In this document: positions 3,480 to 59,918 of the stretch, in pieces
Layout: each line of letters begins with the position of its first letter
How positions within the stretch are numbered: the first letter of the stretch is position 1
Assembly (NCBI GenBank): GCA_903884455.1
Contig: CAISEW010000003.1
Span: 41,313-105,312 of the forward strand
Reading direction: 5' to 3'
From: an uncultured Chloroflexota bacterium
GTDB lineage: Bacteria > Chloroflexota > Dehalococcoidia > GIF9 > AB-539-J10
Length of the DNA: 64,000 bases
The notes under the pieces: model-generated
The model's database searches: none
Told to the model about the DNA's origin: nothing
The model's input: the letters and a program-made list of their open reading frames with translations, nothing else
Program-made: the position numbers and the translations under genes

Positions 3480-3586
3480 TCGCCCAAATTCATTTAGACT
3501 CCTCAGAATAACATTACTAAACGCTCTCTTACAGCCCGATTGACATTAAAGCTGACACCTTCTAAAATCAAGAGGGTGACTGGTAA

Positions 3587-12373: not shown

Positions 12374-12402
12374 TTGAAAGCCCCCCTTTTATAGGCTATA
12401 AT
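12374..12402 (+). promoter_or_regulatory. Sigma70-type promoter TTGAAA-17-TATAAT upstream of aspS
   Basis: Hexamers read in the sequence with exact 17-bp spacing. AAGGAG SD precedes the TTG start of aspS. Confidence 0.5.
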
Positions 12403-18160: not shown

Positions 18161-18210
18161 GAACCCGTTTTACCTTCCTCACTCATGTCATTTTGAGCCC
18201 TTCGCTTTTT

Positions 18211-18238
18211 GTCATTGCGAGCGAAGCGAAGCAATCTC
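18211..18238. repeat. Intergenic copy of dispersed repeat GTCATTGCGAG-CGAAG-CGAAGCAATCTC, preceded by a T5 run
   Basis: Read in the sequence between the PHP gene end and the formyltransferase gene start. Confidence 0.65.
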
Positions 18239-18933: not shown

Positions 18934-19494
18934 TTAGCTAACCTTCTCCAGGTATCCCCCAGTGCGTGTATGGACTTTGATGATGTCGCCTGTATTAATG
19001 AAAAGAGGAACCTGGATGGTTACTCCCGTTTCTAGTTTAGCTGCTTTAGTGCCCGCTGTGGCTCTATCTCCCTTGAAGCCAGGCTCTGTCTCCGTAACCC
19101 GAAGCTCTACCGAAGCGGGTAGCTCTATGGCTACTGTATTCCCCTTGCAGGTCTGAATCTCTAGTACCAGGCCCTCTTTTAGATAATTTGTGCCATCTCC
19201 TATCTGAGTCGAAGTTAACATAAGCTGCTCGTAACTTTCGTTATCCATGAAGTAATAGAGGTCGCCATCGTTATAAAGGTACTGGACGGGGCGATGCTCC
19301 AGAAATACCGTTGCAACTTTATCCCCGGATTGGAAATTCCGCTCGACGAAATTCCCGTTACGAACACCACGAAGTTTCAACTTAATTACAGGCTGCCTTT
19401 GCTGCATCTTAACATGTTGATATTCCAGAATCTGGTATATTTCGCCATCTAGCTCTATGACGGCTCCCTTTCTCAATTCTCCAGCATCAATCAT
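18934..19494 (-). CDS. efp: Elongation factor P
   Basis: 186 aa; KOW-like N-domain and two OB domains. Conserved Lys of the KLKLRGVRNG loop. Confidence 0.95.
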   Translation of the reverse strand: MIDAGELRKGAVIELDGEIYQILEYQHVKMQQRQPVIKLKLRGVRNGNFVERNFQSGDKVATVFLEHRPVQYLYNDGDLYYFMDNESYEQLMLTSTQIGDGTNYLKEGLVLEIQTCKGNTVAIELPASVELRVTETEPGFKGDRATAGTKAAKLETGVTIQVPLFINTGDIIKVHTRTGGYLEKVS

Positions 19495-19566: not shown

Positions 19567-20694
19567 CTAGGTATCCTTACTTGCCTTGGTGAGCACTCTG
19601 GCCTTGCCATTTTCCAAAACTACCATATCCTCAATTCTAACACCACCCTGTCCCGCAAAGTAAATTCCTGGTTCTATGGTAAAAATCATGCCATCTGCAA
19701 GTGAATCAAAGGAGCTGAGACCAAGCCTGGGAAATTCGTGTACAGCTAGCCCAACACCATGTCCTAGACCGTGTCCAAAGGCATCTCCATAGCCAGCTTG
19801 TTCAACAACACTTCGAGCCAATCGGTCTGCCTGAGAAGCATCCATAGCTGATTCAATTCCTTCCATAGCAGTAGTCTGTGCTTTGAGAACTATATTATAA
19901 ATTTCCTTGAAGGTTTTGTTTGCTTTGCCTAAGAATAAAGTGCGACTAAGGTCGCTGCAATAACCACTGATTCTGGCTCCCATATCAATCAGCACTGGTT
20001 CACCAGAGCGAATTGTTTTCTCTGTGGGTCGAGCATGAGGCAAAGCTGAATTTGGGCCTGAAGCCACAATGATTTCAAAAGGTATTCCTTCACTGCCTTT
20101 TTGGCGAAGGATTTTTTCTATCTCCCAGGCTATCTCCTTTTCCGTTATACCAGGACGAATTATGGCCTTTGCCTGTTCAAAAGCAGCATCAGCTAGCTCT
20201 ACTGCTTTTGTGATAAATCCCAGTTCTTCGGGTTCTTTTATGGAGCGAAGCTGTTCTACTATGCCAGTGGTGGGAATAAGCTCAAGATTAACTTGCTTGG
20301 TCTTTACTGCCTCGCCGAGCTTATGATAACCATCGTAAGAAATAAAATTTGCCTCGAAGCCTAATTTGTGCCACCCCAAATCAGAGACCAAACCAGGAAG
20401 CCAGTCATGTAACTCTCCTTTAATTCGGATAATTTCAAAATCTGGTGACTCTCCCTTAGCTTGTTCCACATAGAGAAAGTCAGTAGCTAAAATAGCATTC
20501 CGTCCTGAAATGAGTAGCCATCCGGAGCCGGTAAATCCCGAGAGGTAGCGGAGGTTCTCCGGCTGAGAAAGCAGGAGAGCATCTAGTCCCTTTTCGGCGA
20601 TCGACGTTCGCAGCTTCCGTAATCGCTTTATTTTCGAATTTCTCTTCTCGCCTTCCACAATTCTATTCGTCATTTCGGGTTTCCCTTTATCCAT
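19567..20694 (-). CDS. pepP: Xaa-Pro aminopeptidase (M24B)
   Basis: M24 pita-bread metal ligands (D...D...H...E...E). Creatinase_N-like N-terminus. Conserved pepP-efp adjacency. Confidence 0.85.
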   Translation of the reverse strand: MDKGKPEMTNRIVEGEKRNSKIKRLRKLRTSIAEKGLDALLLSQPENLRYLSGFTGSGWLLISGRNAILATDFLYVEQAKGESPDFEIIRIKGELHDWLPGLVSDLGWHKLGFEANFISYDGYHKLGEAVKTKQVNLELIPTTGIVEQLRSIKEPEELGFITKAVELADAAFEQAKAIIRPGITEKEIAWEIEKILRQKGSEGIPFEIIVASGPNSALPHARPTEKTIRSGEPVLIDMGARISGYCSDLSRTLFLGKANKTFKEIYNIVLKAQTTAMEGIESAMDASQADRLARSVVEQAGYGDAFGHGLGHGVGLAVHEFPRLGLSSFDSLADGMIFTIEPGIYFAGQGGVRIEDMVVLENGKARVLTKASKDT

Positions 20695-20771
20695 AAATTC
20701 TCTATTTTACCCCCGTAAGCTGATTACAATGCTTCCAGCGCCAACCCCCAGGAAGATCTTCCCTCATGTTA

Positions 20772-20810
20772 CAGATAAACAAAAACCCCACGTCCGTTGG
20801 GACGTGAGGC
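20772..20810 (-). terminator. Intrinsic terminator on the minus strand
   Basis: RNA stem-loop CCUCACGUCC-CAAC-GGACGUGGGG (10 bp with one G-U pair) followed by UUUUUGUUUAUC. No equivalent on the plus strand (an A-C mismatch, no T-run). Confidence 0.75.
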
Positions 20811-20937
20811 ACACACGCCTCAATCACAAACCTCCACCAAAACAAGTCCCACCACCATTGAACGAAAATAGCAATCTATCGCTCTTTATGGTCGGGATCT
20901 GGGGATGATTCCATTCCCTTGTCTTATATCCCGTTCC
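20775..20937 (-). ncRNA. Candidate ~165-nt structured small RNA or cis-acting leader/attenuator of pepP-efp
   Basis: Bounded by the consensus promoter (20945-20973) and the intrinsic terminator (20772-20810). Nested stems CGGGAU/AUCCCG and GGGA/UCCC. An alternative hairpin GAGGC-GUGUGU-GCCUC overlaps the 5' arm of the terminator. Confidence 0.45.
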
Positions 20938-20944
20938 AGAAGGG

Positions 20945-20973
20945 ATTATAGCCCGCCCATACAATCATGTCAA
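20945..20973 (-). promoter_or_regulatory. Perfect-consensus sigma70 promoter TTGACA-17-TATAAT (minus strand)
   Basis: Minus-strand reading is ttgacatgattgtatgggcgggctataat. -35 at 20968-20973, -10 at 20945-20950. Confidence 0.7.
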
Positions 20974-21002
20974 TCTAAAAAGGCTTGAGCGGCAACAGCA
21001 TT

Positions 21003-21020
21003 ATGAAAGAAGTCTTTCAT
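21003..21020. promoter_or_regulatory. Perfect 18-bp palindrome ATGAAAGA-AG-TCTTTCAT between the sRNA promoter and the response-regulator gene
   Basis: Read directly in the sequence; 8-bp arms. Confidence 0.35.
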
Positions 21021-21082
21021 ATTAATTTCTTAACATTTCTGATATAACATTAGGGGCTTGAAGAATCACCAGGAGGCCAGGG

Positions 21083-21772
21083 ATGGCAGGCAAAAAGGTT
21101 TTGGTAGTTGATGACGACGTAAAGACTGTGGAGTTGGTCAGGCTCTACTTAGACCGGGACGGCTATCAAGTTCTAACTGCTTATGATGGTGTTGAAGCTC
21201 TGCATCTGGCTCGTGAAAGCCACCCCGACCTCATTGTTCTTGACCTTATGCTGCCAGACATCGATGGCCTTGAGGTCTGTCGTACCCTGAGACACGAATC
21301 TGATGTACCAATTATTATGCTTACTGCCCGGACTACTGACCAGGATAAGCTAACGGGCCTGGACCTGGGCGCCGATGACTATGTGACCAAGCCTTTTAGC
21401 CCTAAGGAACTAGCGGCTCGAGTGCGGGCAGTGCTAAGACGTCTTCCCGGAGAGCGCGGCCCTGAGGAGATTAAGAGTGCTGAACTTAGTATGAATTTTA
21501 CGAAACACGAGGCGTGGTTTGCCGACAGACCATTGAATTTGACCAGTGTTGAATTTAAATTACTGGGAGTTCTCGCCAAGGAACCGGGCAGAGTCTTCAG
21601 CCGGGCAAGCCTTATTGAAGAAGCTTTAGGCTACGATTTTGAAGGTTTCGACCGCACCATTGATGTTCACATCCTCAACCTGCGCCGAAAGCTGGAGCCA
21701 GACTCCAGCCACCCCAGGTATATAAAGACGGTATATGGAGTCGGCTATAAGTTTGTCGGAGGGGAACAGTGA
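21083..21772 (+). CDS. OmpR-family two-component response regulator
   Basis: REC domain (VDDD...D...K) plus winged-helix Trans_reg_C; 229 aa. Confidence 0.9.
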
Positions 21773-23115
21773 CACATCGGTTGTGGTTTCGTCTCTCGAT
21801 AGCTTTCGCTGTGATAATACTGGTGGCCGTCGGCACCATATATTTCTTCGTCAGTCAGCGCATCGCTATCGAAATGGAATATTATAAGACAATAAGTGCG
21901 CAATATCGTTCCGATCAAATACGATCCAAGCTATATCTCCACTATTATGACAAAGGAAGCTGGGAGGACGTCCAGCCCGTAGTTGCAGCATTGAGTGTCT
22001 CCGGGACACACATTATATTGGTCGGTGCCAACGGGACAGTCATAGTTGATTCAAAAGGAGAGCTTTTGGTAGGGACGAACTACACTGACTCATCAGACAG
22101 TCCTCTCGGTCTGAATCTGACCTTGCACAAAGAGTTTCTGGGAAAAGTCTACATCAGCTCTGACCCGGCGGCAGAACCATATGTTGCTCCATTTCTAAGA
22201 CTCTCCACGTCAATAAATCGCTCTCTTCTCCTAGGAGGCTCACTGGCAATCGCCATCGCTTTGATATTGACTTTTGTCCTGTCGCGGAGAATGACGTCAC
22301 CCATCGGTGTCCTTGCCAAGGCTGCCAGACGACTGGGACGGGGAGACTTGTCCCAGAGGGTTCAATTACAGGGCGAAGGCGAAGTTGCGGCATTGGCTCA
22401 AGCCTTTAACTCCATGGCAGCTGACCTGGAGCACGCCGAGCAATTACGACGGAATATGGTTGCTGACGTTGCTCACGAATTGAGGACTCCTCTTTCTAAC
22501 ATTCAAGGCTATCTGGAGGCAATTCGCGATCGGGTGATAAAGCCAGATGCCGCTACTATCCGCTCCCTCAATGAGGAGGCAGCTCTGCTTTCACGACTGG
22601 TTAATGAGCTCCAGGAGCTAAGTCTTGCTGAAGCCGGCGAACTGAAGCTGGTTTATCAAGAGGAAGACATCGCCAAGTTAGTTAAGCAGGCAGTAACTCC
22701 CTGGCAGCCCCAGCTGGCAGCAAAGGAGATATCGCTGTCTCTCGACCTGCCTGATAATCTGTCACCGGTTAACATTGACTGGCAACGGGTCAACCAAGTG
22801 CTGCATAACCTTCTGGAAAATGCGGTGGCTTATACTCATAAGGGAGGCACCATTAATGTGGCTGCTATAACACAAAGTGACTGGGTAGAGGTTAGCGTAT
22901 CGGATACTGGCGAAGGCATTCCTGCTGAGGATTTGCCTCACATTTTCGAGCGCTTCTATAGAGTGGATAAATCTCGTGCCAGAGTCACCGGAGGTAGTGG
23001 TCTGGGTCTTACTATTGCCAAGCGGCTGGTGGAAGCCCATGGCGGAACAATCACAGTCCAAAGCAAGCTGGGAAAGGGAAGTCGTTTTTCATTCACCCTC
23101 CCTATTGCGAAATAG
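21769..23115 (+). CDS. Sensor histidine kinase (2 TM, HAMP, HisKA, HATPase_c)
   Basis: H-box [12 protein letters not shown]; N, G1 and G2 boxes; overlaps the response-regulator stop. Confidence 0.9.
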
Positions 23116-41275: not shown

Positions 41276-41587
41276 ATGGTTAAGATTGCCAAAATTAGCA
41301 AGGAAGAAGCAAAGAGACGCTTAGGGGATGTGCCGGATGATAAACGCTTCTGGTGTCATGATGGTAAAACTATTAAGAACCTCAAGGAGCTTAGAAAAGC
41401 TTTGAATGACATGAGTGATGAGACTTTTCATTATCATTTAGGTGGGGGGAGAAACGATTTCAGCAAGTGGATCAGAGAGGTGGTGGGGGATGATAAGCTG
41501 GCAGAGGACCTTAGTAAAACCAAGTCTCGTATGCAAGCCAGCCAGGCAGTAGCACAGAGAATTTCTTTTCTTGAGCATAAAATATAA
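41276..41587 (+). CDS. Conserved-looking small hypothetical protein (104 aa) embedded in the glycogen locus
   Basis: ATG at 41276 with a strong SD. The track ORF starts at 41270 (GTG). Confidence 0.55.
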   Translation: MVKIAKISKEEAKRRLGDVPDDKRFWCHDGKTIKNLKELRKALNDMSDETFHYHLGGGRNDFSKWIREVVGDDKLAEDLSKTKSRMQASQAVAQRISFLEHKI

Positions 41588-45008: not shown

Positions 45009-45044
45009 TCTATTTTACACGGTTTCGTGTATTTTGTCAATAGT

Positions 45045-47249
45045 TTATGCGGAAAAATCAAAGTCTTTCTCGATTTTTTCCAGGGGTGCCAGGCCGGCCA
45101 GGAGTTTCTTAACCCCCGCTTCTTCAAAGACTACGGTCAGCTCCTGGTCATCCCTTGTAGGATTGCAATTCATCACTATGCCGGGGCCAAACTTGCTATG
45201 GCGGACATGGTCACCGACCTTTAGCGTTAGAGTGCTAGAAGGCCGAGGTGAAGGCTGGGAGTCCCGATTAAAATCGGGACTGGCGACAGGAGTCGGGCTC
45301 TCTTCCCATAGTCCTCTCGGGCTTATTAAGTGGGGTGAGATGTCCTGGAGGAAGCGGGAGGGGGGATTTGCCGTGCTGCCGCCGAATAAGCTCCGACGGT
45401 AACTGCGCAAAAGGTAGAGCCGCTTCTTAGCTCTGGTTATTCCCACATAGCAAAGACGACGCTCTTCTTCCATTTGCTCCGGGTCGTCGAACGATTTCCT
45501 GTGTGGGAGAATTCCTTCCTCCAGACCAACAATAAAAACCGCGGGGAACTCCAATCCTTTAGCTTGATGCAAGGTGATCAGAGTCACAGCATCGGCTTTT
45601 TCATCCAGTTCATCTATATCCGATACCAGGCTTACTTTTTCCAAAAATGTAGTTAAAGCTTCTTCAGTGTCGAGCTTATCATATTCGCTGGCAACATTGC
45701 GCAGCTCCGTTATGTTCTCCCACCTCTCCTCCCCATCTTCCTTGTCCAGAATATATTCTCTATATCCGGTGTGCCCCAGTATCTTATCTAGTAGACGAGG
45801 AAGACTTAGCTCATGGCTTTGGGCAATGAGCTCAGCCATAAGAGCATCAAATCCCGCCAGAGCCTGGACAATGCGTGAGGGAAGAGACTGCTTCGCTTCG
45901 CCGGCAATGGTATTGTGACTCACCTGTTTTAGAGCCTCGAAAAGGGAGGTATTATGAGCTTTTGCCCAGGATTGAAGCGTGTTAATGGTCTTTTGCCCAA
46001 TGCCTCTGCCAGGCACATTTACGATTCGAGTCAAACTGACATTGTCCTGCGGATTATGGATAACTCTGAGGTAAGCAATAATATCTTTAACTTCTTGCCT
46101 TTGATAAAAGCGGGTGCCGCCAACGAGCTTATAAGGCACACCATACCTCAAAAAAGTTTCCTCTAAGGCTCGCGATTGAGCATTAACCCGATACATGACA
46201 GCGCAATCTTTAAGGGATATTTGCTCCTGGCCGATGAGCTTCTCTATCTCGCTGACCACGGATTGGGCTTCTTCCTCGGCATTATAACTTTCGATAACGG
46301 TTACCGAAGCTCCGTCTTCGTTTTCCGTCCAGAGCTTTTTAGGCTTGCGCAACACATTGGCTGAGATAACGTCTGAAGCTACCTCTAAGATTGTCTTAGT
46401 GGAGCGATAGTTCTGCTCCAGAAACACCACTTTGGCTTCGGGGTAATCCTTCTCAAAGCTCAGGATATTACGTAAATCAGCAAATCTCCAGGAATAAATA
46501 GATTGGTCAGGGTCGCCAACCACGCACAGATTCCGGTATTTTCCTGCTAGGTGCTTCATAAGCTCATACTGGGCGATGTTGGTATCCTGGAATTCGTCAA
46601 CCAAAATATGAACATACCTTGACTGGTATCTGGTGAGGATTTGAGGATGGTCACGGAACAACTGCACCGTCTTCATCAGTAAGTCATCGAAATCTACCGC
46701 TTGAGCCTGGCCAAGTAATTGCTGATAGCGTTGATAAACTCTGTGGACTATCTCCTCAAAATAACTGCTAACCCACTCAGCGTAGTCTTCAGAGCTAATG
46801 AGACGGCTCTTAGCTGCGCTGATGGCCGACCGTAGTGCCTGAGGAGCATACTGCTTGACATCGAGGTTCAGTTCTTCCAGGGTTTGTTTCATCAACTTTA
46901 ACTGGTCGTCCTCATCGTAGATAACAAAACTCGACTCAAGCCCGATAGTTTTGCCCTCACGACGGAGAATTCGAGCACAAATGGCGTGAAAGGTGCCTAA
47001 ACTCAAGGCCTCTGCCACCTGCCCCAGAAGCTGTTCCAATCTCTCTTTCATTTCTCGGGCGGCCTTGTTGGTAAAGGTAACTGCCATAATGTTGCGGGGG
47101 CTAACGCCGCAGGTTTTAATCAAATAGGCAACTCGATGGGTAATCACTCTGGTCTTGCCGCTGCCGGGTCCCGCCAGGATAAGTACAGGCCCCTTGATGG
47201 CCTCCACAGCTTCTCTCTGGGCAGGATTAAGCGTGGCTAAGATATCCAT
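45045..47249 (-). CDS. pcrA: ATP-dependent DNA helicase PcrA/UvrD
   Basis: SF1 motifs: Walker A AGPGSGKT, DEFQDT, and the rest of the UvrD-family order; 734 aa. Confidence 0.9.
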   Translation of the reverse strand: MDILATLNPAQREAVEAIKGPVLILAGPGSGKTRVITHRVAYLIKTCGVSPRNIMAVTFTNKAAREMKERLEQLLGQVAEALSLGTFHAICARILRREGKTIGLESSFVIYDEDDQLKLMKQTLEELNLDVKQYAPQALRSAISAAKSRLISSEDYAEWVSSYFEEIVHRVYQRYQQLLGQAQAVDFDDLLMKTVQLFRDHPQILTRYQSRYVHILVDEFQDTNIAQYELMKHLAGKYRNLCVVGDPDQSIYSWRFADLRNILSFEKDYPEAKVVFLEQNYRSTKTILEVASDVISANVLRKPKKLWTENEDGASVTVIESYNAEEEAQSVVSEIEKLIGQEQISLKDCAVMYRVNAQSRALEETFLRYGVPYKLVGGTRFYQRQEVKDIIAYLRVIHNPQDNVSLTRIVNVPGRGIGQKTINTLQSWAKAHNTSLFEALKQVSHNTIAGEAKQSLPSRIVQALAGFDALMAELIAQSHELSLPRLLDKILGHTGYREYILDKEDGEERWENITELRNVASEYDKLDTEEALTTFLEKVSLVSDIDELDEKADAVTLITLHQAKGLEFPAVFIVGLEEGILPHRKSFDDPEQMEEERRLCYVGITRAKKRLYLLRSYRRSLFGGSTANPPSRFLQDISPHLISPRGLWEESPTPVASPDFNRDSQPSPRPSSTLTLKVGDHVRHSKFGPGIVMNCNPTRDDQELTVVFEEAGVKKLLAGLAPLEKIEKDFDFSA

Positions 47250-56183: not shown

Positions 56184-59100
56184 TTAGCCTGTTTTAAGCA
56201 TATCTCCAATATGGTCACGACCGGTAATGTGCAATTCGACAAAAATGGTGGCCCCCTTACCCAGCTGGCTCCTGGCATATATCTGCCCACCGTGCTCGGT
56301 CACTATCCCGTGGCAGATGCTCAAACCAAGCCCGGTCCCTTTGCCTGCTTCCTTGGTGGTGAAGAAGGGGTCGAATATCCGCTTCAGATTTTCCGGTGGA
56401 ATACCCGGGCCATCATCAGCAATTGAAATCAGCACGGTATCGTTCTGTTTTTTGGTGGTGATGGTCAGGGTCCCTCTGTTATGTGCCGTAGTCATAAAAT
56501 ATTCGGCGTTGATAATGATATTCATGAAAACCTGCTGCATCTGAAAATAGTCAACCATGGTTTCGGGAAGGTCTGGGGCAAGATGTCTCTCGACCTCGAT
56601 ACCGTTTACCTTGCGTTCATAAGTACGTAATTCCAGCACGTCCTCGATAATGTTATTTATCTGGTTACGCTGCTTCACGGGTGCGTGCTTTCGGGCAAAG
56701 GCAAGGAGATTTTTTGTCACATTGGCAGCACGCTGAGCCTCGCTATAGATAATCTTCAGATCCTCATGAATGTCGTCGGGGACTTCCTTTTCCAGAAGCA
56801 ACTGGGAGAAACCGATAATGCTCGTGAGCGGGTTGTTAAGTTCGTGGGCGGTGCCGGATGCCAGTTCGCCAAGAGAAGCCAGCCGGTCAGCCAACATAAG
56901 CTGCTCATTCTGCCGCTTTTGCTCAGTAATGTCTGCAAAGGAAATTAAAGCTGCTAATTTGCCTTTATGCATAATCTTCGTAGCCGTTGTATTTATCCAT
57001 ATTTCTCGGCCGTCTTTGGTCACCATTCTAAGTTGATAGCCCTCGTGTGAGTTCTGTTCAAACACAGCCGTCTTAGTAATCTCAAGATATTTCTCTCTAT
57101 CCTCTGGAAGAATGAAGTCAAAGGGCTTTGCTTCAAAGGCTTCTCCTGCAGAACTAAATCCAAACATTTTCAGAGCAGCTTGATTAACCATCACTACTTT
57201 CATAGTTTCAGCATCCAGAAGAACCGTGCCGATGACCGAGCTATCGAACAAAGCTCGATAATTTTCCTCGCTTTGTCGCAGTGCTTCCTCCATCTTCTTG
57301 CGCTCGGTGATGTTAGTAATAGAAACTAAAGCCGCTAATCTGCCCTTATGCATAATCCTCGCACTCGAAATACTTATCCATCCTGTCCCGCCATCTTTGG
57401 CTATTACCCGAACCTCGTGAGTCCGCCGCAAGTCTTGTTCAAACTCTTTCGTGGCCATCTCAAGAATTTGCGCCCTGTCTTCTGGAATAACAAAGTCAAG
57501 TGGATTTATTCCAATGCCATCCCCTGCAGAACTAAATCCAGCCATTTCCGCAGCAGCTCGATTTCCTATCACTACTTGCATAGTTTCAGCGTCCAGAACA
57601 TACATGCCGATGACCGAGCTATTGAACAAAGTTTTGTAATTCTCCTCGCTTTGTCGCAGTTTCTCTTCTGCCTTCTTGCGCTCGGTGATGTCAGTAAAAG
57701 AAAATAAACCCGCTAATCTGCTCTTGTGCATAATTCTCGCACCCGTCACACTCAGCCATATTTCTCTGCCATCTTTGGTCACCGCCTGAATATCGACGGA
57801 CTTCCGCGAGTCCTTTTCAAACACCTCCTTCACAATAAGCTTAAGATTTTTCTCCCTGTCCTCCAGAGGAACGAAGTCGAGCGGATTTATTCCAGCGCCT
57901 TCCTTTGCGGAACTAAATCCAAACATTTTCACAGCGGCTTGATTACCCATCACTACTTTCATAGTTTCAGCGTCCACAACAAGCGCGCCGATGACTGAGC
58001 TATCGAACAAAGCTCGATAATTTTCCCGGCTTTGTTGCAGTTTCTCCTCTACCTGCTTGCGCTCGGTGACGTCACGCCCAACGCCACGGAACCCGATGAT
58101 CTCGCCCTTGTCATTTCGCAGAAGAGAGACCGATGTTTCGGCAAACCCGTGGCCCCCGTCTTTGCGGCTGGTTTTCCAAGGGAAGCCCTTGTTTGGCACA
58201 CCGGTCCGGTACACTTCATTAAAGACTCGAAATACGGATTCGATATCATCCTCAGCTATAAAGCCTTTATAGCTCATTCCAATCAGCTCTTTCCTTGAGT
58301 ATCCCAGGTCGCGGCACACCGAATTATTGACAAAGGTGAGGTGTCCGCCGAGGTCAACCTCGAAATAGCTATCTTCCATCTCCTCCAGTATAGTCCGGTA
58401 TCTCTCCTCAGACTGCCTCAGCGCTTCCTCTGCCTGCTTACGCTCGGTGATGTCTGTAAAAGAAATTAAACCAGCTAATTTGCCCTCATGCATAATCCTC
58501 GCACCCGTCGCACTTATCCATATGGTTCTGCCATCCTTGGTCACTGCCCGAATCTCATGAAGCTGCCGCAAATCCTGTTCAAACATATCCTCCATAGTAA
58601 GCTTAAAAGCCTTTCCCCTGTCCTCCGGAAAAACGAAGTCAAATACGTTTAGTCCGATGGCTTCCTCTGCAGAACTAAATCCAAGCATTTTTGCAGCAGC
58701 TGGATTAGCCATAATTACTTTCATAGTTTCAGCGTCCATAACAAACATGCCGATGACCGAGCTATCGAACAAAGCTCTATACTTTTCCTCGCTTTGTCGC
58801 AGTGCCTCCTCCATCTGCCTGCGCTCGGTGATATCCCTTGCAATCATCTGGACAACTTCTTTTTGGTCTGAAATTTTCGTGGGGATATATATGTGGTGGA
58901 AGTGTCTTCCCGTTCTTTCATCCTCGAAAATTTGGGGTTGCCACTCATCCAAAGCCTTCCTCACCATTCCCAATCGGTACTGCGCAACCTCTTGCGGCTG
59001 CACTTCGAATAATGTCTTGCCAATCAGTTCTTCCAAGGGAACTCCCAGGCTTCTTGCCGTCGCAGGATTCGCAGCAAGATATCTTCCCTCTCTATCTATC

Positions 59101-59918
59101 TGAGTGATGCAATCCAGAGAAGTTTCGAATAGCAGGCGGTATTTCTGTTCAGACTCTTTTAGCTTTTCCTCTGCCTGCTTGGGCTCGGTGATGTCACTGA
59201 CAAAAACCGAGATGCCACCTCGGGAGGGATAAGCGCTGATCTCAAAGATGTAGTGCCTACCATCAATATCCATATCGTTCACAAAAGTCTGAGGCTGCTG
59301 CGTCTTCAGCACGTTATGGTACACCTTTTCCGCCTTTCTCACACCAGGCGTGTCCGGGAAAATTTCCCGGAGGAATTTCCCAATCGCATCCTCCGCCCGA
59401 ATTCCTGTCAGAATTTCCGATGCCTTGTTCCAATAGATATATCTCAGGTGCTTGTCCATGGCGAAAAAGATGTCAGTGATGCTGTCGGCAAGCTCCCTGT
59501 ACTTCTCTCCGCTCTCTTTCAGTGCATCCTCTGCCTGCTTGCGCGCGGTGACTTCCATGTAACTTCCCAGGGTTGCCCGTCTCTCATGGTACCGGACGGA
59601 TTTAACTGCCTCCATAACCCACCTAATGCTACCGTCTTTATGAATCACCCTGAATTGATATGGTGGAATGAGCTCTCCCTTGAGCATCTTTATTTCATTT
59701 TCCCTGACCATCTCCCTATCTTCGGGAACGATAAGCTCCAAAGGATCCTTGCCCATCAATTCATCTGCCGTGTAGCCGGTGGCGATTGGGAAGTTGGAGT
59801 TGACATAGCAAAACTTTCCATCCTGTATAATGCAAACTCCGACTGGCGATTTGTCGCCCATAATCTTGAGCATCTCTTCTTCATCCATTCGCTTGACCGT
59901 TGATTTCATTGATTTCAT
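56184..59918 (-). CDS. Cytoplasmic multi-PAS (about 8 PAS/PAC) sensor histidine kinase
   Basis: 1244 aa with no TM segments. Repeated ERKxxEExLRQSEExYRxLF...TDIT PAS units, then HisKA (GTAHELNNPL) and HATPase_c (DDGPGI...GTGLGL). Confidence 0.9.
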   Translation of the reverse strand: MKSMKSTVKRMDEEEMLKIMGDKSPVGVCIIQDGKFCYVNSNFPIATGYTADELMGKDPLELIVPEDREMVRENEIKMLKGELIPPYQFRVIHKDGSIRWVMEAVKSVRYHERRATLGSYMEVTARKQAEDALKESGEKYRELADSITDIFFAMDKHLRYIYWNKASEILTGIRAEDAIGKFLREIFPDTPGVRKAEKVYHNVLKTQQPQTFVNDMDIDGRHYIFEISAYPSRGGISVFVSDITEPKQAEEKLKESEQKYRLLFETSLDCITQIDREGRYLAANPATARSLGVPLEELIGKTLFEVQPQEVAQYRLGMVRKALDEWQPQIFEDERTGRHFHHIYIPTKISDQKEVVQMIARDITERRQMEEALRQSEEKYRALFDSSVIGMFVMDAETMKVIMANPAAAKMLGFSSAEEAIGLNVFDFVFPEDRGKAFKLTMEDMFEQDLRQLHEIRAVTKDGRTIWISATGARIMHEGKLAGLISFTDITERKQAEEALRQSEERYRTILEEMEDSYFEVDLGGHLTFVNNSVCRDLGYSRKELIGMSYKGFIAEDDIESVFRVFNEVYRTGVPNKGFPWKTSRKDGGHGFAETSVSLLRNDKGEIIGFRGVGRDVTERKQVEEKLQQSRENYRALFDSSVIGALVVDAETMKVVMGNQAAVKMFGFSSAKEGAGINPLDFVPLEDREKNLKLIVKEVFEKDSRKSVDIQAVTKDGREIWLSVTGARIMHKSRLAGLFSFTDITERKKAEEKLRQSEENYKTLFNSSVIGMYVLDAETMQVVIGNRAAAEMAGFSSAGDGIGINPLDFVIPEDRAQILEMATKEFEQDLRRTHEVRVIAKDGGTGWISISSARIMHKGRLAALVSITNITERKKMEEALRQSEENYRALFDSSVIGTVLLDAETMKVVMVNQAALKMFGFSSAGEAFEAKPFDFILPEDREKYLEITKTAVFEQNSHEGYQLRMVTKDGREIWINTTATKIMHKGKLAALISFADITEQKRQNEQLMLADRLASLGELASGTAHELNNPLTSIIGFSQLLLEKEVPDDIHEDLKIIYSEAQRAANVTKNLLAFARKHAPVKQRNQINNIIEDVLELRTYERKVNGIEVERHLAPDLPETMVDYFQMQQVFMNIIINAEYFMTTAHNRGTLTITTKKQNDTVLISIADDGPGIPPENLKRIFDPFFTTKEAGKGTGLGLSICHGIVTEHGGQIYARSQLGKGATIFVELHITGRDHIGDMLKTG
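56925..58830. repeat. Tandem array of ~375-bp PAS-domain-encoding repeats inside the histidine-kinase gene (five units, four nearly co-linear)
   Basis: Nearly identical ~50-nt blocks (aaattaaagc/tgctaatt/ctgcc.ttatgcataatc.tcg) recur at about 56925, 57304, 57678 and 58441. The antisense-frame ORFs in the track share the same N-termini, which betrays the periodicity. Confidence 0.7.

Follow-up and report, generated by a model that had tools for sequence, protein, structure and literature searches.

A 64,000-nt stretch of contig CAISEW010000003.1 from an uncultured Chloroflexota bacterium (hereafter the window, always meaning this whole stretch) carries on its minus strand, at 20772-20973, a compact element that runs from a strong promoter to an intrinsic terminator and lies ahead of pepP and efp, the genes for a Xaa-Pro aminopeptidase and elongation factor P (EF-P). 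What does such an element regulate, if anything? An earlier note on this DNA had read it as a structured RNA of ~165 nt, either a cis-regulatory leader of pepP-efp or a stand-alone small RNA (sRNA). We found that in related genomes the same element precedes mgtE, a Mg2+ transporter gene that the window lineage has lost, and that it contains a conserved short open reading frame (ORF) with a Pro-Asp-Pro-Asp run. The element is probably the orphaned and decaying leader of the deleted mgtE, similar in kind to the MgtL leader of mgtA, with a promoter that now probably drives pepP-efp. The features of the element and its downstream genes are as follows, with S1 to S6 denoting pairing segments of the leader.

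20945-20973, minus strand: sigma70-type promoter, with TTGACA at 20973-20968, a 17-nt spacer and TATAAT at 20950-20945; transcription start at ~20937 predicted from the spacing.
20777-20810, minus strand: intrinsic terminator, with a stem at 20810-20785 of 11 pairs including one G·U, a 4-nt loop and the U-tract UUUUUGUUU at 20785-20777.
20806-20821, minus strand: alternative hairpin GAGGC-GUGUGU-GCCUC (S4:S5), perfect only in the mgtE-less lineage, through a C→U change at 20807.
19567-20694, minus strand: pepP, M24 Xaa-Pro aminopeptidase, with a likely true start at ATG 20673 and AAAGGGAAA before that start; now the first gene past the terminator.
18934-19494, minus strand: efp, elongation factor P, 3′ of pepP.

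The promoter and the GC-rich terminator of the earlier note are both present as described. The promoter, at 20973-20945, is the sole perfect match (12/12) to TTGACA-17-TATAAT within the window, and matches of 11/12 or better number four against 0.31 expected, a count reached by no shuffled sequence. The terminator hairpin, ~127 nt 3′ of the predicted start, has a folding energy of -20.7 kcal/mol (z = -2.9). The complete window transcript folds modestly better than shuffled sequences (z = -2.05, with 7 of 200 shuffles equally good).

Homologues of the element in related genomes

Relatives were chosen by a PepP-based scan with one genome per species, which placed the window in an uncultured clade of Dehalococcoidia. 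Using nhmmer, we found the element in nine Dehalococcoidia genomes recovered through PepP. It lies directly 5′ of pepP in five of these, as in the window, and in the other four (L004, L006, L007, L017) it is separated from pepP by a gene of 456 aa, whose product is MgtE by its Pfam domains PF01769, PF03448 and PF00571 (CBS). The MgtE homologues among the matches listed are all at least 81% identical, and the comparison covers mgtE genes within this range. A DNA pattern built from the stretch between S4 and the terminator retrieved 75 further metagenome loci, among which conservation of the terminator is accordingly ascertained by the search itself.

Synteny is the same in 85 of 85 loci: a response regulator on the opposite strand, the leader, mgtE where present, and pepP. 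mgtE is present in 51 loci, pepP follows the leader directly in 30 (window included) and four loci end at a contig edge. Homologues are confined to one Dehalococcoidia clade and always occupy this locus; at the more distant Dehalococcoidia pepP loci, the regulator, mgtE and the element were all absent.

Where mgtE is present, it starts 18-31 nt past the GGGG that closes the 3′ arm of the terminator (~12 nt past the U-tract in L004 and L017). We found no sigma70-like promoter between the leader promoter and pepP in L004, nor, in agreement with the earlier note, between the terminator and pepP in the window. The leader promoter is therefore likely to be the promoter of (mgtE-)pepP-efp, which would explain its retention. 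The likely start of pepP at ATG 20673 is based on the upstream sequence AAAGGGA(A/G)ACNCGAAATG, which is conserved among relatives. As to mgtE itself, public gene calls for related MgtE proteins often give 471-477 aa (L017 1541-2959; P0002, P0004, P0011, P0019 and others), where the conserved start gives ~456 aa; the calls are over-long because the caller takes as start an ATG that belongs to the leader or the terminator.

A conserved 27-codon ORF in mgtE-bearing leaders

In mgtE-bearing leaders, an ORF spans from 17 nt past the predicted transcription start to 27 nt before the terminator. It encodes a peptide of 27 residues, ME(T/M)KSSPDPD(H/R)KRRQIAIFVRWWWGL(L/P) followed by a stop, or residue by residue M-E-(T/M)-K-S-S-P-D-P-D-(H/R)-K-R-R-Q-I-A-I-F-V-R-W-W-W-G-L-(L/P)-stop. 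Of 46 distinct mgtE-type leaders, 45 have the ORF intact, the exception being L122, where a run of T is one T longer; the ATG never varies, and the stop is TAG in 45 leaders and TAA in one. Three of the four indel events within it are in frame, namely a 3-nt deletion common to L006 and L108 (WWW→WW), a 3-nt deletion in L094 and a 12-nt insertion in L096. The ratio of nonsynonymous to synonymous polymorphism (pN/pS) is 0.41 in frame versus 1.27 and 0.53 out of frame, and stops interrupt the other two frames in 13 of 45 and 45 of 45 leaders. The 41 peptides with the standard length of 27 residues all have P7-D8-P9, and 40 have D10; the small residues K-S-S precede this motif. Judged by these patterns, the "structured RNA" is in mgtE-bearing leaders largely a conserved small ORF, and the Pro-Asp-Pro-Asp peptide that the earlier note had raised as a speculation is key to the element, being conserved in mgtE-bearing relatives.

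The insertion in L096 (382-552) is a natural variant of this motif, in which 12 nt added in frame double it to PDPDPDPD; it should strengthen any stall at these codons.

The same patterns bear on the possibility that the leader RNA itself binds Mg2+ or another ligand, as an M-box-like riboswitch within which the ORF is incidental. A riboswitch would suit an element that lies upstream of a Mg2+ transporter, combines a terminator with competing pairings and is strongly conserved in mgtE-bearing genomes, and a combination of sensing by RNA and by peptide has been proposed for the mgtA leader of Salmonella (PMC11552253). Conservation here, however, tracks the reading frame, as seen in the in-frame indels, the TAG or TAA stop, the single open frame and the in-frame pN/pS, and the leader shows no multi-helix junction and almost no covariation. 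The covariance-model check suggested in the earlier note also matched no known RNA family: a search of all 64,000 nt against Rfam 15 gave no match at the gathering threshold, and at E ≤ 10 the window leader and the mgtE-type leader L004 returned noise only (SNORD22, MIR7729, ClpQY_promoter, rnk_pseudo and similar), with no M-box among the matches. We consider a riboswitch unlikely.

Deletion of mgtE in the window lineage

Between the terminator and pepP, the window retains both ends of mgtE.

20724-20767, minus strand: mgtE scar, in which the first ~38 nt of the gene (ATG 20767-20765) are joined at 20731/20730 to its last 7 nt (TAA 20726-20724).

Past the terminator, the window reads ATGAGGGAAGATCTTCCTGGGGGTTGGCGCTGGAAGC, the start of mgtE, fused directly to ATTGTAATCAGC, the last 7 nt of mgtE with the mgtE-pepP spacer. 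The mgtE-bearing counterpart in L017 reads ATGAGCGAAGATTTTACCGGGAGGCCGTCATTGGAAGC-TTTGAATG ... CTGCG-ATTGTAATCAGCC, and ~1.3 kb of mgtE is missing from the window. An identical fusion junction is found in all mgtE-less loci (the window and 29 others), even very diverged ones, so that a single ancestral deletion of ~1.3 kb is the simplest account. Relocation of mgtE was rejected, as no MgtE-like gene occurs elsewhere in the window. The cis-regulatory leader of the earlier note thus stands as far as its promoter, terminator and competing pairings are concerned, but its ancestral target was mgtE, and it adjoins pepP only through the deletion.

A 21-codon ORF (MREDLPGGWRWKHCNQLTGVK and a stop; 20702-20767, minus strand) also results from the scar, in the interval from the terminator to pepP. 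Relatives do not keep this frame open; in L001, for example, its third codon is a stop.

Decay of the leader ORF and persistence of promoter and terminator

The leader ORF has not survived intact in the window, where two features record its former extent.

20876-20914, minus strand: truncated leader ORF, MESSPDPDHKER and a stop, with Pro-Asp-Pro-Asp codons at 20902-20891 and a premature TAG at 20878-20876.
20837-20920, minus strand: footprint of the ancestral 27-codon ORF, with the ATG now AAG (20920-20918) and the TAG now TGG (20839-20837).

The 12-codon ORF of the earlier note (ATG 20914 to TAG 20876) is therefore present, but as a truncated remnant of the 27-codon ORF. In alignments A1, A3 and A4, the window has changed the ancestral ATG to AAG, CAG to TAG at codon 13 and the ancestral TAG to TGG, and what is left of the ORF begins at the internal Met3. 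The nonsense change at codon 13 is absent from the closest relatives (L101, L105, L047, L144). Among ~27 distinct mgtE-less leaders, three (L001, L088, L098) keep the 27-codon ORF; in the remainder it has lost its start or its stop, is frameshifted or is cut short by a premature stop.

As a neutral yardstick we used four-fold-degenerate sites of pepP, comparing pairs matched at a four-fold identity of ~0.61. At this divergence, identity in the ORF is 0.85 for mgtE-bearing pairs versus 0.61 for mgtE-less pairs, and identity in the 5′ untranslated region (UTR) is 0.77 versus 0.62. Both regions thus match the four-fold level in mgtE-less genomes, indicating neutral evolution there. That the ORF decays after the deletion ties its function to mgtE rather than to pepP-efp.

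This decay also bears on a proline-based sensor, proposed in the earlier note, in which stalling on Pro-Asp-Pro-Asp at low EF-P or PepP activity would raise pepP-efp transcription. The proposal draws on the position of pepP-efp downstream in both arrangements with no intervening promoter detected, and on a report that EF-P and EfpL aid synthesis of the XPX-containing MgtL (PMC11611912). The ORF and 5′ UTR became neutral once mgtE was deleted, however, despite pepP-efp staying in place, and the ORF is broken in ~24 of 27 distinct mgtE-less leaders, the window's among them. The classical EF-P-dependent motif consists of consecutive prolines, which Pro-Asp-Pro-Asp does not contain. Other Dehalococcoidia pepP loci, moreover, have no such leader. 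We therefore disfavour autoregulation of pepP-efp and give it a low probability; EF-P could act as a secondary input in mgtE-bearing genomes.

The ends of the element have fared differently from its interior. Both promoter hexamers are invariant across the 28 leaders of alignment A4, which comprises the mgtE-less leaders and L004, and TTGAC(A/G)-N16-18-TA(T/A)AAT is matched in every leader scanned. Among mgtE-less genomes whose recovery relied on PepP and not on the DNA pattern, six of six keep the terminator. Between L011 and the window, ~84% of positions from S4 to the terminator are identical (counted from A4) versus a four-fold identity of 0.56.

A perfect promoter and a strong terminator that are kept while the ORF decays would also fit a stand-alone, abundant sRNA of ~165 nt acting in trans, and the cassette would yield a short transcript whenever termination happens. 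Against a sequence-specific trans function, however, the interior of the element is neutral in mgtE-less genomes; the element always sits at the same locus, has no second copy in the window and matches no Rfam family. We regard this explanation as very unlikely.

Within the conserved 3′ part, GCCUCAC replaces GCCCCAC in 20 of 22 distinct mgtE-less sequences versus none of 31 with mgtE, at a position that was degenerate in the search pattern. This C→U change makes GAGGC/GCCUC perfect and gives the terminator a G·U pair; the ancestral GCCCC of mgtE-bearing leaders produces an A·C mismatch in the S4:S5 hairpin. The pre-terminator hairpin averages -10.4 kcal/mol in mgtE-less versus -7.2 kcal/mol in mgtE-bearing leaders, and the terminator -17.9 versus -22.1 kcal/mol. 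In the window, the GAGGC/GCCUC hairpin forms once the 3′ arm of the terminator is omitted (-10.8 kcal/mol, z = -2.6), versus a weak -6.1 kcal/mol in L004 (-7.1 versus -3.6 kcal/mol in a separate calculation). The hairpin that the earlier note took for an expression platform is therefore present, but, to judge from these comparisons, it is a derived trait of the mgtE-less lineage and weak in mgtE-bearing leaders. The change at 20807 may be one inherited substitution, or may reflect selection for more read-through into pepP-efp.

Possible competing pairings in the leader

Two segments of the ORF can pair with each other, and the second of them also with the terminator.

20888-20902, minus strand: S1, the PDPDH codons, CCAGAUCCCGACCAU in the window and, as a segment of the leader, CCAGACCCAGACCAU; pairs with S2 in an RNAalifold helix.
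20846-20856, minus strand: S2, the Trp-Trp-Trp-Gly codons, GGUGGUGGGAC in the window and ancestrally GGUGGUGGGGC; proposed antiterminator strand.

The terminator consists of S5 (GCCCCACGUCC, 5′ arm) and S6 (GGACGUGGGGC, 3′ arm). S2 is identical to S6 at 9 of 11 positions, and is weakened in the window by a G→A change. Duplex energies are -11.8 kcal/mol for S1:S2 and -15.4 kcal/mol for S2:S5, both in L004, and -23.8 kcal/mol for S5:S6. Besides running RNAalifold, we counted pairs over three explicit models, the terminated state and two antiterminator registers. Across the 46 mgtE-type leaders, 98.5% of sequence-by-pair cells are pairable for S1:S2, 99.6% for the terminator and 96-99% for the antiterminator registers. 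Of the nested stems in the earlier note, relatives keep ACCAU/AUGGU; the other two, CGGGAU/AUCCCG and GGGA/UCCC, are confined to the window lineage (A1, A3, A4).

Codon usage in these segments is consistent with constraint on the RNA. Changed forms of the middle Trp codon are AGG or GGG, so that GG is kept and Trp is lost; L094 likewise has CGG and AGG in place of two of its three Trp codons. At the third position of Pro7, which is paired, A or G only occurs, both of which pair with U, and any of the four bases is seen at the third position of Pro9, which is unpaired. Sensing of Trp was considered and rejected: as the WWW codons are part of segment 2, a ribosome stalled on them would promote termination, and Trp gives way to Arg or Gly with GG kept.

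That the ORF encodes a small protein partner or regulator of MgtE, like MgtS, MgtR or KdpF, would account for its conservation, the moderate purifying selection on its amino acids and its loss together with mgtE, but we give this hardly any weight, as a strong terminator stands between ORF and mgtE, the 12-residue hydrophobic stretch IAIFVRWWWGLL is broken by Arg and too short for a membrane helix, Trp→Arg/Gly is tolerated if GG is kept, which points to constraint on the RNA, and the ORF overlaps both strands of S1:S2.

We also considered transcripts truncated before S6. With Pro-Asp-Pro-Asp masked as by a stalled ribosome, S2:S5 folds and encloses a small S3:S4 hairpin; with the mask placed at the stop codon, S5 is nearly free. 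The Trp-codon segment paired with the 5′ arm of the terminator is the more likely ancestral antiterminator.

A proposed attenuation mechanism for the ancestral leader

Ancestrally, a consensus promoter would have produced a leader of ~165 nt, followed within ~12 nt by mgtE and then by pepP-efp. Three pairings would compete within it, S1:S2, S2:S5 (with the GCCCCAC... arm) and S5:S6, in the 1:2/2:3/3:4 layout of trp-type attenuators. Smooth translation to the stop codon would place the ribosome over S2, let the terminator form and keep mgtE off. Stalling on, or loss of the ribosome at, Pro-Asp-Pro-Asp would leave S1 covered, so that S2 could capture S5 before S6 is made, giving read-through and mgtE expression. 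By analogy to MgtL, the stall would report low Mg2+. In the window today, the ORF is broken, S2 is weak and the ORF region drifts, and the promoter, the terminator and a stronger S4:S5 hairpin persist; the promoter would now serve pepP-efp by partial read-through.

Several observations weigh against this account. The Shine-Dalgarno sequence of the leader ORF is poor (AAGG, 1 nt from the AUG), which weakens the case for its translation without excluding it; mgtE in the same genomes likewise has no good Shine-Dalgarno sequence, and pepP has AAAGGGAG. Compensatory changes, to which the earlier note had looked in relatives, are nearly absent: they affect 2 of 26 pairs of the terminated-state model, in one sequence each and none in S1:S2, where changes among the 46 mgtE-type leaders are one-sided only, and none occurs in the two antiterminator registers across these leaders. 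At a mean identity of 84%, the leaders are too similar for covariation, making this result uninformative rather than negative. With the complete leader, the terminator always wins at equilibrium whatever the ribosome mask, so that an attenuation model must be kinetic, and the untranslated truncated RNA does not fold into a clean S1:S2 state. The loss of mgtE is one evolutionary event, which leaves the contrast between mgtE-bearing and mgtE-less leaders unreplicated, and the 75 metagenome loci were ascertained through the S4-terminator pattern. Retention of the terminator in mgtE-less genomes is left unexplained by a decaying mgtE leader. Finally, the organisms being uncultured, we infer the transcription start, translation of the ORF, termination and the attenuation logic, as well as the present role in the window; Mg2+ is proposed as the signal from the downstream gene and the MgtL analogy alone.

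Surroundings of the element in the window

Divergently from the leader promoter, the window encodes an OmpR-type response regulator and a HAMP-HisKA kinase (21083-23115, plus strand), a synteny kept in most related loci. Transcriptional input from this adjoining two-component system to the promoter of a Mg2+ transporter, as by PhoPQ, is conceivable. The intergenic region between the leader promoter and the regulator (20974-21082) contains a direct repeat, AATGTTA...AATGTTA, at ~21030-21052 with 14 nt from start to start. The further matches of 11/12 to TTGACA-17-TATAAT, at 3540-3568 (plus strand), 12374-12402 (plus strand) and 45012-45040 (minus strand), are likely strong promoters.

The element itself is single-copy in the window, and a repeat or mobile element was rejected on this ground. 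Elsewhere, 56877-59566 holds direct repeat families D1-D3 with units of 360-381 nt at 60-80% identity, probably tandem domains in one long gene. Inverted-repeat matches of 26-28 nt and 79-88% complementarity at 18176-18238 (just 3′ of efp), 41394-41421 and 45884-45909 represent either a dispersed element resembling repetitive extragenic palindromes (REP-like) or chance.

Comparison with known leaders

Two sources (10.1101/2021.02.02.429294; PMC11552253) describe MgtL as a short peptide of the mgtA leader that starts MEPDPT, whose N-terminal EPDP destabilizes the ribosome, an effect that is stronger at low Mg2+ and turns mgtA on (the former citing Chadani 2017, Gall 2016 and Park 2010). Like MgtL of Salmonella and E. 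coli, and the related corL of corA and mgtP/mgtM of mgtCBR, the leader described here has a short ORF ahead of a Mg2+ transporter gene, with an alternating run of proline and acidic residues near the N-terminus (MEPDPT there, M-E-x-K-S-S-P-D-P-D here); the peptide has the D/E/P-rich motif by which 10.1101/2021.02.02.429294 characterizes MgtL-type peptides. The proposed logic is also alike, in that efficient translation would keep the transporter off and impaired elongation would turn it on through alternative pairings, as the same two sources propose for MgtL. Here, in addition, a two-component system adjoins the leader locus. The two differ in the transporter, an MgtE channel rather than MgtA or CorA, and in the phylum, Chloroflexota; in termination, by an intrinsic hairpin and U-tract rather than Rho-dependent; and in the motif, which begins at residue 7 (P-D-P-D at 7-10) rather than at residue 2. 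No homology to MgtL is demonstrable, and the peptides are too short for testing it. It is possible, though we lean against it, that Dehalococcoidia independently evolved an MgtL-like Pro-Asp-Pro-Asp sensor gating an intrinsic terminator before MgtE and pepP-efp, and that the mgtE-less cassette, with its derived hairpin and weaker terminator, was re-tuned for pepP-efp.

The attenuators of trpL, hisL and the ilvB upstream ORF share with this leader a strong promoter, a short ORF, four segments able to pair as 1:2, 2:3 or 3:4, an intrinsic terminator just before the regulated gene and regulatory codons, here putative, in segment 1. In mgtE-bearing relatives, a conserved short ORF and an intrinsic terminator do stand before mgtE; the window copy lacks the intact ORF. 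Unlike in trp-type attenuators, the conserved codons here are Pro and Asp rather than those of the pathway's end-product amino acid, the target is an ion transporter, and segment 2 holds the three Trp codons, constrained as RNA (GG) rather than as Trp.

Two RNA elements that also precede mgtE can be set apart. The M-box (ykoK leader, RF00380; mgtE of Firmicutes) likewise has an intrinsic terminator and an expected response in which high Mg2+ leads to termination, but the present element has no covariance-model match and no three-helix metal-binding core, and its conserved part is a reading frame. The Thioalkalivibrio mgtE motif (SRC-65-1) is a strong riboswitch candidate from one gammaproteobacterial genus, a covariation-backed multi-stem structure that encloses the Shine-Dalgarno sequence and AUG of the main ORF (PMC11109978). 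Like the present element, it is a cis-regulatory candidate that lies ahead of genes with an mgtE annotation, but by its description it differs in acting through translational control, without a leader ORF or terminator (PMC11109978). A full-text literature search found no description of a leader-peptide attenuator for mgtE, and the Thioalkalivibrio candidate was the one "mgtE motif" that it turned up; this is no proof of novelty, and an MgtL-like mgtE attenuator is previously undescribed as far as that search reached.

Implications

The copy in the window is a relic of low functional significance, of interest mainly for present transcription of pepP-efp. The locus as a whole amounts to a natural knock-out, in which the regulated gene was deleted, the ORF decays neutrally, and the promoter and terminator persist. 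It illustrates that what one sequence alone suggests to be a "structured RNA" can turn out to be a coding attenuator, and it draws attention to wrongly called start codons of MgtE in public annotation. If the proposed mechanism is true, Mg2+ sensing by acidic and proline-rich leader peptides would extend past the enterobacterial mgtA, corA and mgtCBR leaders to the MgtE family, to an intrinsic-terminator read-out and to Chloroflexota, and would support ribosome destabilization on Asp/Pro nascent chains as a widely usable gauge of Mg2+. If its origin was independent as well, Mg2+ sensing by nascent acidic and proline-rich peptides would be a general strategy on which different phyla and transporter families have converged.

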